From Octopus vulgaris (Eukaryota): a stretch of DNA of 64,000 bases. The stretch is from positions 22,816,001 through 22,880,000 of the forward strand of contig OX597834.1 in NCBI GenBank assembly GCA_951406725.2, given 5' to 3'. The notes beneath the pieces were generated by a model. It did no database searches and had not been told where the DNA came from. It was given only the letters and a program-made list of their open reading frames with translations. Both the position numbers and the translations under genes were made by a program. This document shows, one piece after another, positions 25,533 to 58,216 of this stretch (position 1 is the stretch's first letter; the number at the start of each line of letters is the position of its first letter).

Positions 25533-25557
25533 GTCAATATCCGGTTGAGCATGCGCA
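25533..25557 (-). promoter_or_regulatory. Conserved ZNF upstream motif, unit 1
   Basis: GTCAATATCCGGTTGAGCATGCGCA, present once per ZNF unit. Confidence 0.75.
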
Positions 25558-25653
25558 TGGTGAACTTCACGGCAGGTTGGTTTAGCAGGCGCTTACGTAT
25601 GCATACGTATACTAACGCTCATACAAACATGCACATATATATATATATATATA

Positions 25654-25914
25654 CAATTGCAGCGTGGAAGGTGTTTATAAGCCATTTAAGAAACACACAA
25701 AACCGTTTGATTCACTTCAACATTTAAATTTAATTTGTCAAAATATTTTCGTCGCTTTGAGACCGCGACCTGTTGCACGAAGTTTTGTCAGTGAACAGGT
25801 CGCAATCTGAAAACGACGAAAATATTTTGACAAATTAAATTTAAATGTTGAAGTGAATCGAACGGTTTTGTGTGTTTCTTAAATGGCTTATAAACACCTT
25901 CCACCCTGCAACTG
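25654..25914. repeat. Near-perfect 260-bp palindrome
   Basis: ~120-bp arms that are reverse complements of each other. Confidence 0.9.
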
Positions 25915-26475
25915 TTTTCGTTCCAGCATACGATCTCAGATCAAGTCACTCGCTATGCAAGTACATCTCCTTAATATATATATATAGGTTGTCTCCCTTG
26001 GTACACTGTCAGCTGTACCTGCATACTATTTTCCATTTTGACAGGCAGTAAGCCAAAACCAAGAATACACTGCTCAACAATAAGGAAGTGTACGTGTGTT
26101 TTATTCTTGTTAAAGAATAACAAATTTGTACTCTAATACAAAAGCATGGAGTATTTCTTTAGGTTAATGTAAAATTGTTTTTATTATAACCAAACATAAA
26201 AAGCAAACATTAATAAATATGTATATATAAATTACACCTCCTGTTTAAAGCTCCAATGAAGCTATAGAGTGATAGACAGGCATTCAACTAGGAGTGCATT
26301 GCATCTTATTGCACAAACAGCCATGAGATAATCAAGCTTATGACATAATTTCTTATTCCTTTGTCATCCCCAATTTCTTACTCTGTTTTGAAGCATTGTA
26401 CATTGAGTTCCAACACCAGATTATTGCTGTCACTATGCCTAAGTGAAATAATAATAAAAAATATATATATACATA

Positions 26476-26858
26476 GGCACAGGACTGGCTGTGTGGTAAG
26501 TAGCTTGCTAACCAGCCACATGGTTCCGAGTTCAGTCCCACTGCGTCGCATCTTGGGCAAGTGTCTCCTGCTATAGCCCCGGGCCGACCAATGCCTTGTG
26601 AGTGGATTTGGTAGACGGAAACTGAAAGAAGCCTGTCATATATATGTATATATATATATATATGTCTGTGTTTGTCCCCCTAACATTGCTTGACAACCGA
26701 TGCTGGTGTGTTTACGTCCCCGTCACTTAGCGGTTCGGCAAAAGAAACCGATAGAATAAGTACTGGGCTTACAAAGAATAAGTCCCGGGGTCGATTTGCT
26801 CGACTAAAGGCGGTGCTCCAGCATGGCCGCAGTCAAATGACTGAAACAAGTAAAAGAG
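26476..26858 (+). mobile_element. Full-length tRNA-derived SINE
   Basis: tggctgtgtggt A box, gagttcagtccc B box, internal (TA)n; many copies in the window. Confidence 0.85.
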
Positions 26859-27272
26859 AGAGATACATGTAGATAAATAAGTATTTTGTCTTGTGCCACA
26901 AGGAAGTATTTTCTACGCATCATGTATTTAATAGCATATCAACTCTACCATGATAGTATCCCTAATTTACAGCAATGTATATTTTCAGTTATTTACCCAA
27001 TGTCAAATAAATCAAAAGTATCCTTTTCATCATCATCATTCAGCATCCATTTTCCCTCTTTCAGAAATATGTCAAATGGACTATGTATGATTATATTAAA
27101 AAAGTGGTTTTATTAACAATATCACAGTGGTAAATTATCTAACCAATGAAGATATAGTTATGATTATGTGATATGAAGTTCGTTACCAAACTATTATGTC
27201 TTCTTTCCTGTGAGAATAATTTATGCTTACATGTGATAATTTTTCTAAAAATAATGTGTGAGATAAATATCC

Positions 27273-54583: not shown

Positions 54584-54789
54584 CCCTTTCATTACCAACC
54601 TGCCTGAAACTGGCTCTGAGTACAAATGCCTTGTTTTCATAAGTTCTGAATTAAAATCTTCCACCAAACTTTAGTCACAATTTATGTTCCTAAAACTAGC
54701 TGAATGATTATTTTACTAAATTCTTTGTTATATTTTCAGTAACTGAAAGAAACACAGAGCATCTCAAAATATATACAGTAACAAAAGGG
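54584..54789. mobile_element. piggyBac-like MITE
   Basis: TTAA|CCCTTT...AAAGGG|TTAA. Confidence 0.7.
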
Positions 54790-55139
54790 TTAATTTATTT
54801 TTCATTTCACTTCCTTCTTAATGGTGTTACTCTCTTATCTTACTATACTTTTTCTGTTCTGGAATTATGTTAGATGGAATACAAATTACTATACTGAAAC
54901 AAATTATCTATTTACAACATCACAGCAGTATGTTATCTCAGCAAAGTAGCTACAGTTACGGTTATATAATATATAATGTTAAAAAGTTATCACACAATTA
55001 TGTCCTTCCACTGGGAATACTTTTGTGGTGATAAGAAAAGTATCATTTATAGAAGAATTTGACACTGATTGGTTTATACCTGTATAAATGTAGATATTTG
55101 TAGTTAAGTGAAATTCTTTGAGAAAACGATTTACTAATA

Positions 55140-56921
55140 TCAGTTATAAGGCTTTTCTCTTGTATGAAGATCCCTGTGTCTAGTGAAGCTGCCAGTGTCA
55201 GATAGTGATTTGCCACAGATATCACAAAGATAAGGCTTCTCTCCTGTATGAATACGTTTGTGCTTATTTAAGTCACTACTTTGAGAGAATGATTTATCAC
55301 ATATATCACACTGATACGGCTTCTCTCCCGTATGTACACGAATGTGTGTTGTCAAGTAACTACTTCTAGAGAAGGATTTACCACAGATGTCACAATTATA
55401 TGGTTTCTCTCCTGTATGAACTCGTTTGTGTCTAGTTAAATCACCATTCTGTGTGAATGAATTACCACAAATATCACAGTGATATGGTTTTTCCCCTGTA
55501 TGAATGCGTTTGTGTCTAGTTAGGAAACTTCCTTCAGAGAAAGATTTACCGCAGATATCACAGTGATATGGTTCCTCTCCTGTATGAATTCGTTTGTGTC
55601 TTGTTAACTCACTACTTTGAGAATATGATTTACCACAAATATCGCAGTGATATGGTTTTTCTCCTGTATGAATACGTTTGTGTTTAGTTAAATCCCCATT
55701 TCGAGAGAATGATTTACCACATATATCACAACAAAATGGCTTCTCTCCTGTATGAGTCCGTCCATGCCTAGTAAAGTCACTACTTCCAGAAAAGGATTTA
55801 CCACAGATATCACAGTGATATGGTTTCTCCCTTGAATATTCTTGAGCAGTTGATTTACCTGAGTGTAACAATGATTTACCACAGATATCAGTACAATTCT
55901 GCTTGTCTCCAATATGAATGCGTTTGTGTTTAGTCACTTCTGAATTTTGAGAAAATGATTTACCACAGATATTACAGTGAAATGGTTTTTCTCCTGTATG
56001 AATACGTTTATGTCGAGTTAACTCACTACTTTCAGAGAATGATTTGCTACATATATCACAACAGTATGGCTTCTCTCCTGTATGAATTCGTGTGTGTTTT
56101 GTTAAATCTCCAGTTTGAGAGAATGATTTACCACATATCTCACAGTGATATGGCTTCTCTCCTGTATGAATACGTTTATGCTTGGACAAGTCTCCATTTC
56201 GAGAGAAATATTTACCACAGATATCACAGTGATAGGGCCTCTCTCCTGTATGAATGCGTTTGTGTTTAGGTAAGTTAGATTTTCGAGAGAATGATTTACC
56301 ACAGATATCACAGTGATATGGCTTCTCACCTGTATGAATACGTCTGTGACAAGTTAAGTTACCACTATGGGAAAATGATTTACCACAGATATCACAGTGA
56401 TATGGTTTCTCTCCTGTATGAATAAGTTTGTGCTTAGCTAAGACATATGGATTTGAGAAGGATTTATTGCAGATGTTACAGCGATATGGTTTCTCCCCTG
56501 TATGAATGCTTTTGTGAAAAGTTAAACGATTTCTTTGAGAAAATGATTTATCACAGATGTCACAGTGATATGGTTTGTCTCCAGTATGAATACGTTTGTG
56601 AGTACGTAATGCAGTACTATGGGAGAATGATTTTCCACATACGTCACACTGATATACTTTTATTCCTGTATGAATGCGTTTGTGAATAGTTAAGACATTT
56701 CTTTGGGAAAATGATTTACCACAGACATCACAGTGATATGGTTTTTCCCCAGTATGTTTTCTTTTGTGAGTAGTTAGGACACTTTTTTGAGAGAATGACC
56801 TTTTAAAGATATCACACTTGTATGATGTTTTTCGTATCTCTTCCACCATCTCATCAGCAAAATTATTTGTTTGTGGCTCAGTTTTAATCGTAATTGGTTC
56901 TTCATAGAATTTACTCTCCAT
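55140..56921 (-). CDS. C2H2 zinc-finger protein 6 (18 intact plus 2 degenerate fingers, 593 aa)
   Basis: Tandem C2H2 array. Confidence 0.92.
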
Positions 56922-58191
56922 AATTATTATTCCTTAAGCACTGCTTTGGTTTATATTTCGATCAACTGTAAATCGTTTTTGAAGTATGGAGATACCACAA
57001 ATTCTTTGTAAATATTTCCAAGTCTATTCCAGACAATGAAGTAGAATTTTGCTGATAATCTCAGTTCACAAGAAATATTTCACACCAATTCAAACATAGA
57101 TTTATACACGCAAGTTGTATTTTGTGAGCCCAATACCTTCCTCCAGTCTTTAAAAGTTGATAAATATTGTCCATGCATCGGATATTTCTGAAATAATAGA
57201 GAAAGTTTAAGTAAAAGGGGGTATTTAAAAGTAGGCACAGCATTGGAAGATTTACTACATTTCTATATTGATAAACTGGAGATATAAACATTTATATGGA
57301 CAATCTAGGTTTACTTCAAATATACATATTTTCAAACTACAGTTACATCCTAAAGCTGTGTAATATGTCAGCTTAGAGAAAGTAGTTGTAGATAGACGTA
57401 AGTAAAGCCTTATCAAGGCCCGTAACTCTCAAATTATTACACAAGTATGATGACACCACTAGCAATAAACAATTTCACTGAAAATATATCACAACACAGC
57501 AACACCTGATTCTCTTTATATATATATATATATATATATATATATATATATATATATATATATATATATACACACACGCACATATATATATAAGCAACCC
57601 AATAGTAGTTCGTTACATTCTTCTGTTGGTATTTTTATAGCCCTAGGTCAGTACTGACTGAGCAGACTTGTGACCAAAGATTGTTTTTAGGGGTGTCACG
57701 AATTTTATGACTAAACATTAACCAAATTAAGAATACAATGAAAAGAAGAAACAAAACACCGATAATATCAAGAAATCAGCAACAAAAAATACCCAATATA
57801 AATCCTTTCAAGAAGGCTTGAAACTTTGGGGAGGGAGCTAGTCGATTACTCGACTTGTACTTAATTTATCGACCCCGCAAGGATGAAAGGCGGGGTCTGC
57901 CTCGGCTGAATTACCTAGTACACCTCGTATAAATAACAGCCAATATCAGGAAGACAGTGATAGTGGACAAATGTATTACTGAAGCGATAATTAGTATTTA
58001 TATATATATATATTTATTTTTTATAATGTTATATACATACATATATAACATTATAAAAATATATATATAACATGATGTATAAATATGATTACCTTTCTAT
58101 CAGCATCTATCTCACGCGAAATAATTTCTTTACAAATATGTAATTTAATTATGCGTATAATTACAGTAATCTTCGGCTTAAAGTGTCTGTA

Positions 58192-58216
58192 GTCAATATC
58201 CGGTTGAACATGCGCA
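58192..58216 (-). promoter_or_regulatory. Conserved ZNF upstream motif, unit 6
   Basis: GTCAATATCCGGTTGAACATGCGCA. Confidence 0.75.

Follow-up and report, generated by a model that had tools for sequence, protein, structure and literature searches.

A conserved element with predicted NRF1- and ETS-type sites upstream of six tandem C2H2 zinc-finger genes in Octopus vulgaris

The gene array and its upstream element

The window (the whole 64-kb stretch of DNA analysed) carries an octopod tandem C2H2 array with six complete ZNF ORFs, ZNF1–ZNF6, all on the minus strand. A seventh ORF, ZNF7 (61275–64000, minus), leaves the window at its end, its 5′ end being cut by the window edge and its promoter lying beyond it. 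In ZNF1, the predicted exon 2 (22388–23924) runs from an acceptor at 23924 through a leader to an ORF (23341–22388, 317 aa) encoding the C2H2 array. Corresponding exons were predicted on the same strand for ZNF2 (27273–28783; ORF 28448–27273, 391 aa), ZNF3 (37300–39127; ORF 38781–37300, 493 aa), ZNF4 (42265–43657; ORF 43350–42265, 361 aa), ZNF5 (49141–50555; ORF 50256–49141, 371 aa) and ZNF6 (55140–57187; ORF 56921–55140, 593 aa). These putative leaders carry many upstream ATGs (3–10 within exon 2), so the ZNF gene models may be incomplete. A coding N-terminal domain hidden in the exon-2 leader was rejected, as no open frame was present (0/6 units). No KRAB, ZAD or BTB domain occurred among the Pfam matches listed (the best 25 of 29 for ZNF1 and the best 25 of 39 for ZNF4), and an N-terminal peptide search to size the subfamily gave no match. 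Of seven proteins looked up by exact sequence, 0/7 were present in the collection searched.

Scanning the 64-kb window with the 25-mer located exact minus-strand copies (0 mismatches) at 25533–25557, 45911–45935, 51645–51669 and 58192–58216, together with a copy carrying one mismatch and ending TTGGC at 29825–29849 (minus). The ZNF3 copy (40357–40381) has four mismatches to the 25-mer, yet 20/21 of its core bases match. The original prediction of minus-strand copies in all six complete units was therefore borne out, five at one mismatch or fewer and the sixth by its core match. By chance, 0.00 matches to the 25-mer were expected (100 shuffles). Scored with a weight matrix built from the six cores, these reached 36.9–38.9 bits, and the next-best site in the window 13.0. 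One copy lies 5′ of each complete ZNF ORF on the gene strand (6/6), and no stray copy was found anywhere in the window. A single, equally oriented copy per unit was thus confirmed, and within these 64 kb the motif is not equally common away from ZNF genes.

The distance from the element to the conserved, predicted first splice donor was 188, 174, 216, 214, 241 and 268 bp in ZNF1–ZNF6, respectively, in agreement with the ~175–270 bp proposed earlier. Conservation suggests that these element-to-donor stretches hold the start site and a non-coding exon 1. All on the minus strand, they span 25345–25532 (ZNF1, donor after 25345), 29651–29824 (ZNF2, donor after 29651), 40141–40356 (ZNF3, donor after 40141), 45697–45910 (ZNF4, donor after 45697), 51404–51644 (ZNF5, donor after 51404) and 57924–58191 (ZNF6, donor after 57924).

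Constraint on the core and divergence of the flanks

The six cores (all minus strand) occupy 25537–25557 (ZNF1), 29829–29849 (ZNF2), 40361–40381 (ZNF3), 45915–45935 (ZNF4), 51649–51669 (ZNF5) and 58196–58216 (ZNF6). Column 9 is a single C/T split, with ZNF1–3 showing the C-form and ZNF4–6 the T-form. The TGAC tail of ZNF1 lies at 25533–25536, the tail of ZNF2 reads TGGC, and in ZNF3 the core begins with A and four bases are inserted ahead of TGAC. Across the six copies only columns 2–8 and 10–21 are invariant, i.e. 19 of 20 consecutive columns. Under a flank-derived tree, the probability of at least 19/20 invariant columns was ~3e−14 (7e−11 after 2500 windows). This tree-based test and the shuffles rule out a chance origin of the element. 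The invariant block stops exactly at position 21, where the ETS 9-mer described below also ends. Since constraint on the TGAC tail was not significant (P ~0.06, marginal at best), the 25-bp length originally given was rejected; the constrained core is 20–21 bp.

Mean identity between paralogues was 0.92 in the element, compared to 0.67 across the 90 bases that open the coding sequence and 0.80 over the final 25 bases of the intron. The contrast between the element (92%) and the coding N-termini (67%) indicates, at the level of sequence comparison, that the element is under purifying selection. Within 25 bp on each side, identity drops to shuffle level (0.62 and 0.58 vs 0.54), and the sharpness of this drop at both edges rules out plain inheritance without selection. 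Tandem paralogues are capable of converting each other, and the C/T state tracks array position, as might be expected if gene conversion or very recent copying had homogenised a functionless stretch. However, such homogenisation is barely credible given the shuffle-level identity on both sides and the deep star tree of the units (end branches 0.27–0.58). For the history of the C/T column, the free tree requires three changes, without a supported branch, and a single origin was not rejected (p-AU 0.193).

Further upstream, the 100 bp preceding the element could not be aligned (0/15 pairs with z > 3), whereas the element-to-donor stretch remains homologous (65% identity, 10/15 pairs with z > 3). 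The claim that the flanks have diverged thus holds upstream but not on the donor side; that they are filled with different TEs is partly supported by dispersed repeats seen in a self-BLAST of the window. On the 5′ side, homology between units stops at the element. Such an edge would suit a mobile element that brought in or seeded the genes, with the conserved stretch as its terminus or internal promoter. Against this, no terminus partner or dispersed copy, direct or inverted, was found at the 3′ ends or elsewhere in the 64 kb. Conservation also far exceeds that of the rest of the unit, so that ongoing selection would be required whatever the origin of the element, and we regard a mobile origin as highly improbable.

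Its orientation-specificity and a short TCAA..TTGA inverted repeat would also be compatible with the element acting as RNA, structured or protein-bound, at the transcript 5′ end. However, folding energy was no better than that of shuffles in 5/6 copies (ZNF3 only ~1 sd better), the predicted structures differ between copies, and an Rfam search of the element gave no match. The folding energies and the Rfam result rule out an RNA hairpin or known RNA family, and action as RNA appears extremely unlikely.

NRF1- and ETS-type sites in the core

Positions 1–12 of the core form an NRF1-type 12-mer (25546–25557 in ZNF1) that directly abuts an ETS 9-mer at positions 13–21 (25537–25545 in ZNF1), leaving a gap of 0, and this zero-spacer layout is unchanged in 6/6 copies. 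The NRF1 consensus comprises two GCGC halves around a 2-bp spacer (GCGCNTGCGC), of which the octopus element retains one perfect GCGC half-site and an AT spacer, with one mismatch over 12 bases in ZNF1 and ZNF2 and two in ZNF3–6. An oligo to which human NRF1 binds (PMC10810270, Table 2) carries the ZNF1/ZNF2 12-mer, unchanged, as its inner 12 bases, which upholds the NRF1/Ewg/P3A2 likeness first noted for the left half; P3A2 and EWG are NRF1 homologues (PMC10810270). Human NRF1 binds that C-form oligo with a Kd of 1.38 uM, 4.5-fold weaker than the consensus (0.31 uM), and lower activity is reported for broken GCGC halves (PMC10810270). Substitution at the C/T column causes the smallest single loss (0.66 uM; PMC10810270, Table 2). 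In comparison to the NRF1 site GCGCATGCGC (PMC10810270), the octopus copies share the perfect half-site and AT spacer, and the ZNF1/ZNF2 form is a measured variant. They differ in that none of the six has an optimal second half-site and that the T-form (three copies) combines two changes, the published Kd values covering single-change variants. Positions 1–12 therefore read as a candidate sub-optimal NRF1 (Ewg/P3A2) dimer site.

The right half was originally said to match no recognised motif, but it opens with an ETS site. The 9-mer ACCGGATAT, with its GGA(A/T) core, ACC 5′ flank and RY 3′ flank, is invariant in 6/6 copies, and the first 10 bases of the right half, AACCGGATAT in all six, are identical to the core of a published bait that allowed binding assays of all ETS classes (PMC2905244). 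Of the two versions of the GGA(A/T) core of ETS-family sites, the octopus has GGAT and not GGAA. Within the window ACCGGAWRT occurs seven times, six of them in the element. No shuffle of the 21-mer held both the NRF1 and ETS motifs (0/200,000), the motifs having been picked after inspection of the sequence. Positions 13–21 are thus a predicted ETS site.

A non-ETS factor might occupy the right half beside NRF1 on the left, since AACCGGAT matches the Grainyhead palindrome at 7/8 and CAACCG fits the Myb core. However, the window abounds in Grainyhead- and Myb-type matches (34 and 180 strand-hits, vs the 7 of ACCGGAWRT), and constraint reaches position 21, past either motif, making a Grainyhead/CP2 or Myb factor here very unlikely. 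Alternatively, one long-footprint factor (multi-finger C2H2 or THAP-type, perhaps a product of the cluster) could read all 20–21 bp, the NRF1 and ETS likenesses being partly coincidental. This would fit the run of invariant columns, which includes the non-consensus NRF1 base, as well as the constant spacer and the marginally retained TGAC tail. On the other hand, two known motifs together cover the whole block without a gap, and its sole split column is the change best tolerated by NRF1. A neutral T column would stay invariant with P ~0.24, so the fixed non-consensus base requires no special reason, and a single indel-free junction is probably unremarkable. On balance a single long-footprint factor is unlikely.

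For an ETS composite of fixed geometry at proximal promoters, the overlapping ETS–CRE pair (PMC3464117) offers a precedent. In the octopus, by contrast, the ETS factor would have NRF1 as its partner, placed 5′ of it, and the TGAC tail lies one base off register (N3, not N2) and is only marginally conserved.

Promoter context and proposed mechanism

CpG o/e was 1.07 (>99th percentile) just upstream of the element and 0.97–1.0 downstream, compared to a background of 0.57 ± 0.17. In 6/6 units the value at the element surpassed that of the CDS, and it exceeded 1.0 in 5/6, ZNF5 reaching only 0.59. Repeat-rich stretches at 34–36 kb also reach a CpG o/e of ~1.0. The surroundings of the element are AT-rich (30–38% GC). 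Octopus intergenic DNA and transposons are likewise unmethylated (PMC9476566), so CpG retention is not specific to promoters in this animal.

A TATA-like match was found in 3/6 units and TCA[GT]T in 4/6, at unrelated offsets. No TATA or Inr was common to all six, and fixing the start site from such matches was rejected for this reason. The start site is placed by inference: the element lies upstream of the donor (conserved in 6/6), and homology between units extends no further 5′. Activators of the proximal promoter are what NRF1 and ETS sites serve, and as no TATA or Inr is universal, the label 'core promoter' used in the original prediction is overstated. 'Family-wide' is likewise overstated, since it covers six paralogues of one array, which inherited the element by duplication, while Octopus has well over a thousand C2H2 genes.

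We consider it probable, from sequence evidence, that the element is an inherited NRF1 + ETS proximal-promoter module of the ancestral octopod C2H2 gene. The module would have been copied with each tandem duplication and retained by purifying selection while the remainder of the unit drifted. An NRF1 (Ewg/P3A2) dimer at positions 1–12 and an ETS protein at 13–21 would sit side by side and hold the site open, in the manner of CpG-island promoters in vertebrates and unmethylated promoters in annelids. Transcription would begin a short distance downstream, and the non-coding first exon would then be spliced to a single leader-plus-finger exon. Alongside this exon structure and start site, we infer binding by octopus NRF1 and ETS proteins, activation and co-expression of the six genes.

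In the literature searched, no account of cephalopod C2H2 promoters and no description of the element in cephalopods was found, and matches to the exact element string were unrelated as judged by title and the start of the abstract. Cephalopods possess thousands of C2H2 genes (2785 in D. pealeii; PMC9068888), and a 21-bp tag marking the predicted start of 6/6 paralogues could allow direct first-exon annotation and a count of how much of the expansion has one promoter type. It would also let one ask whether these are broadly expressed, methylation-sensitive housekeeping-type genes or under neuron-specific control. For specialists, the surprise would lie only in the lack of a spacer between the two sites and in a reach that may extend across the family. 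That a rigid cooperative NRF1:ETS 21-mer, or the site of one long-footprint and possibly cluster-encoded factor, heads hundreds of octopod C2H2 genes is a bolder and rather doubtful proposal. If true, the largest cephalopod transcription-factor expansion would be switched by one cis-element, and the 21-mer would also be a sequence tag with which to find and time octopod C2H2 genes.

By analogy, the NRF1 + ETS mechanism would be a familiar one, its type being known to be enriched at promoters of annelids and vertebrates. Unmethylated regions at annelid promoters are enriched for ELK3, YY1, NRF and ETS motifs (PMC11292947), and in mouse cells NRF1 and GABPA open chromatin and are located just upstream of start sites (bioRxiv 10.64898/2026.05.04.722487). 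The octopus units share with such NRF1/ETS/YY1-type, TATA-less, CpG-retaining promoters (PMC11292947; PMC13216069; bioRxiv 10.64898/2026.05.04.722487) the motif pair, the CpG peak and the lack of a common TATA. They differ in their AT-rich setting and in the abutting pair, a layout not named in the available portions of those sources. A promoter type common to tandem ZNF paralogues is also reported (PMC10547256, citing Hadzhiev et al.) for zebrafish FiNZ-ZNF clusters, where promoter types are linked to co-expression waves; there, however, the early class is TATA-defined, and the clusters belong to another lineage and an independent expansion.

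Gene models of the C2H2 array

Between 22.4 kb and the end of the window (GC content 36.6%), seven minus-strand ORFs were found, each with a short N-terminal peptide followed by C2H2 zinc fingers. Six were complete (ZNF1–ZNF6) and ZNF7 was truncated by the window edge. C2H2 expansions have already been reported in cephalopods (PMC9068888). Alignment of the six complete units (one gene plus its upstream DNA) identified a splice donor and an acceptor kept in all six, the acceptor opening a leader of 266–583 bp that precedes the ORF. This conservation points to a predicted two-exon model for ZNF1–6, with putative introns of 736–2039 bp. 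The exon-2 leaders contained 3–10 upstream ATGs, hence additional splicing is possible. Conservation of these leaders, e.g. 28449–28783 (minus strand), equalled that of the coding N-terminus (0.67) although they lacked an open frame, and in several units a second acceptor-like CAG occurred 50–90 bp 5' of the ATG.

A tRNA-like insertion in the ZNF1 leader (23556–23613, minus) was absent from the other five units; ARAGORN called no tRNA gene there, and it is probably a pseudogene or SINE head. Past the ZNF1 stop (21700–22390, minus), the finger array continued frameshifted, with several repeats of a 166-bp two-finger unit (84–89% match) representing either recent amplification or an assembly artefact. 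Degenerate, frameshifted finger remnants also lay 3' of the ZNF7 stop (60700–61270, minus). A homologous non-coding block (72–75%) downstream of ZNF3, ZNF4 and ZNF5 (36403–36938, 41490–42026 and 48745–48823) is perhaps a 3' UTR or polyadenylation region.

A constrained element upstream of each complete gene

Each complete ZNF gene had one copy of a short element, always on the gene strand, with cores at 25537–25557, 29829–29849, 40361–40381, 45915–45935, 51649–51669 and 58196–58216 (minus; ZNF1–ZNF6, respectively). The original prediction described a near-invariant 25-bp sequence upstream of a conserved splice donor. Four exact 25-mers and one with a single mismatch were present, where none is expected by chance; the ZNF3 copy matched 20 of 21 core bases, and the donor followed 174–268 bp downstream in every unit. 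The near-invariant block was confirmed, but not its length: columns 2–8 and 10–21 were invariant, whereas the TGAC tail was not significantly constrained (P about 0.06), reducing the element to 20–21 bp. In a matrix scan of the window, the copies scored 37–39 bits and the next best match 13 bits. A weak 13-bit match (58918–58938, minus), lying some 700 bp 5' of the element at ZNF6, is probably due to chance or is a decayed copy.

Paralogous units are expected to share some sequence anyway. Mean pairwise identity was 0.92 for the motif, 0.62 and 0.58 for the adjoining 25 bp and 0.54 for shuffled sequence, compared to 0.65 from motif to donor, 0.67 over the 90 bases that open the coding sequence and 0.80 over the final 25 bases of the intron. 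In alignable flanks, 14–33% of gap-free columns were invariant and the longest invariant run was 7; under the tree that these flanks gave, of length 2.4, the probability of 19 or more invariant columns out of 20 was about 3e−14. Homology between units ended at the element, with 0/15 unit pairs alignable in the 100 bp upstream and 10/15 downstream. The element is real and strongly constrained. Gene conversion as the source of this similarity is disfavoured by the sharp identity edges and the deep star tree of the units. A transposon end, with no second or stray copy in the 64-kb window, and an RNA element are likewise disfavoured. A separate ~150-bp sequence (88–97% in two pieces) was shared by the ZNF1 intron (24729–24858, plus) and an inverted copy just upstream of the ZNF2 motif (29995–30134, minus).

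Predicted abutting NRF1-type and ETS sites

Element positions 1–12 form a predicted NRF1-type site, in agreement with the proposed resemblance to NRF1/Ewg/P3A2 sites. The 12 bases in ZNF1 and ZNF2 equal the inner part of an oligo bound by human NRF1 at 1.38 µM, compared to 0.31 µM for the consensus (PMC10810270). The substitution corresponding to the C/T split between copies (C in ZNF1–3, T in ZNF4–6) gave 0.66 µM, the mildest of the single changes tabulated, and an oligo with one half destroyed was still bound (3.76 µM). The T-form carries both changes within one half, and these affinities cover each change separately.

The right half had been thought to match no recognised motif. Positions 13–21, ACCGGATAT, are instead a predicted ETS site, and the 10 bases AACCGGATAT were common to all six copies, which accounts for this half apart from the marginal tail. 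The ETS family core is GGA(A/T), and a bait holding AACCGGATAT was chosen because all ETS classes could be assayed with it (PMC2905244). The two sites abut and jointly span the constrained block, a stretch that a single long-footprint factor is unlikely to read as one, and both motifs occurred in 0/200,000 shuffles (motifs picked after the sequence was seen). Grainyhead and Myb patterns also match the right half and would allow a non-ETS reader; however, such matches were common in the window, and this alternative is very improbable.

Outside the element, ACCGGAWRT occurred once in the window, in the ZNF5 intron (50789–50801, minus), where a consensus ETS site leads into GTGACG, much like the ETS-CRE composite described in PMC3464117. 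The altered tail of the ZNF2 copy created a plus-strand CCAAT box, with a second, inverted CCAAT 8 bp away (both within 29805–29832); none was seen in the other units.

Promoter context and precedents

CpG o/e rose from about 0.5 at 500–1000 bp upstream to 1.07 beside the element and remained close to 1.0 over the next 500 bp, against a background of 0.57 ± 0.17, exceeding the CDS value in all six units. This profile is consistent with an unmethylated 5' end followed by a methylated body, but offers modest support since octopus intergenic DNA and transposons are reportedly also unmethylated (PMC9476566). Unmethylated promoters of annelids show enrichment of NRF and ETS motifs (PMC11292947), which in humans are ubiquitous near the TSS (PMC13216069). 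In mouse cells, NRF1 and GABPA were classed as chromatin-opening and located just upstream of start sites, although degrading NRF1 itself had limited effect (bioRxiv 10.64898/2026.05.04.722487).

Octopus NRF1 and an ETS protein may thus bind the element and keep it open, with a TATA-less transcript starting a short way downstream; the effect would be activation, and the ZNF genes would be co-expressed. No TATA or Inr was common to the six units compared, so the element would act as a proximal activator module and not, as first proposed, a core promoter in the strict sense. Overall, an NRF1+ETS proximal-promoter element, inherited by the units, is the most probable interpretation.

Tandem ZNF clusters in zebrafish share promoter types, much as the octopus array shares its element (PMC10547256). 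Fixed ETS composites are also known but, unlike here, no abutting NRF1-ETS pair was found in the available part of that source (PMC3464117). Our literature search, which reached few subscription papers, turned up no description of this element, nor any of C2H2 promoters in cephalopods, and NRF, ETS and C2H2 were unmentioned in the available main text of PMC13652810. The evidence covers six sister genes in one 64-kb window, and a family-wide role, with a rigid composite at the head of much of the C2H2 expansion in octopods, is unlikely.

An intact histone H1 gene (8763–9311, plus) had a TATA box and lacked the element. Its best named matches were Octopus sinensis (83% identity) and Argonauta hians (68%), identifying the window as octopod DNA. 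A 16-bp 3' stem-loop followed at 9336–9351, with no Rfam report at the gathering score. The 3' part of the gene was partly duplicated at 9548–9816 and 16274–16710, the latter joined to a mariner-type HTH fragment.
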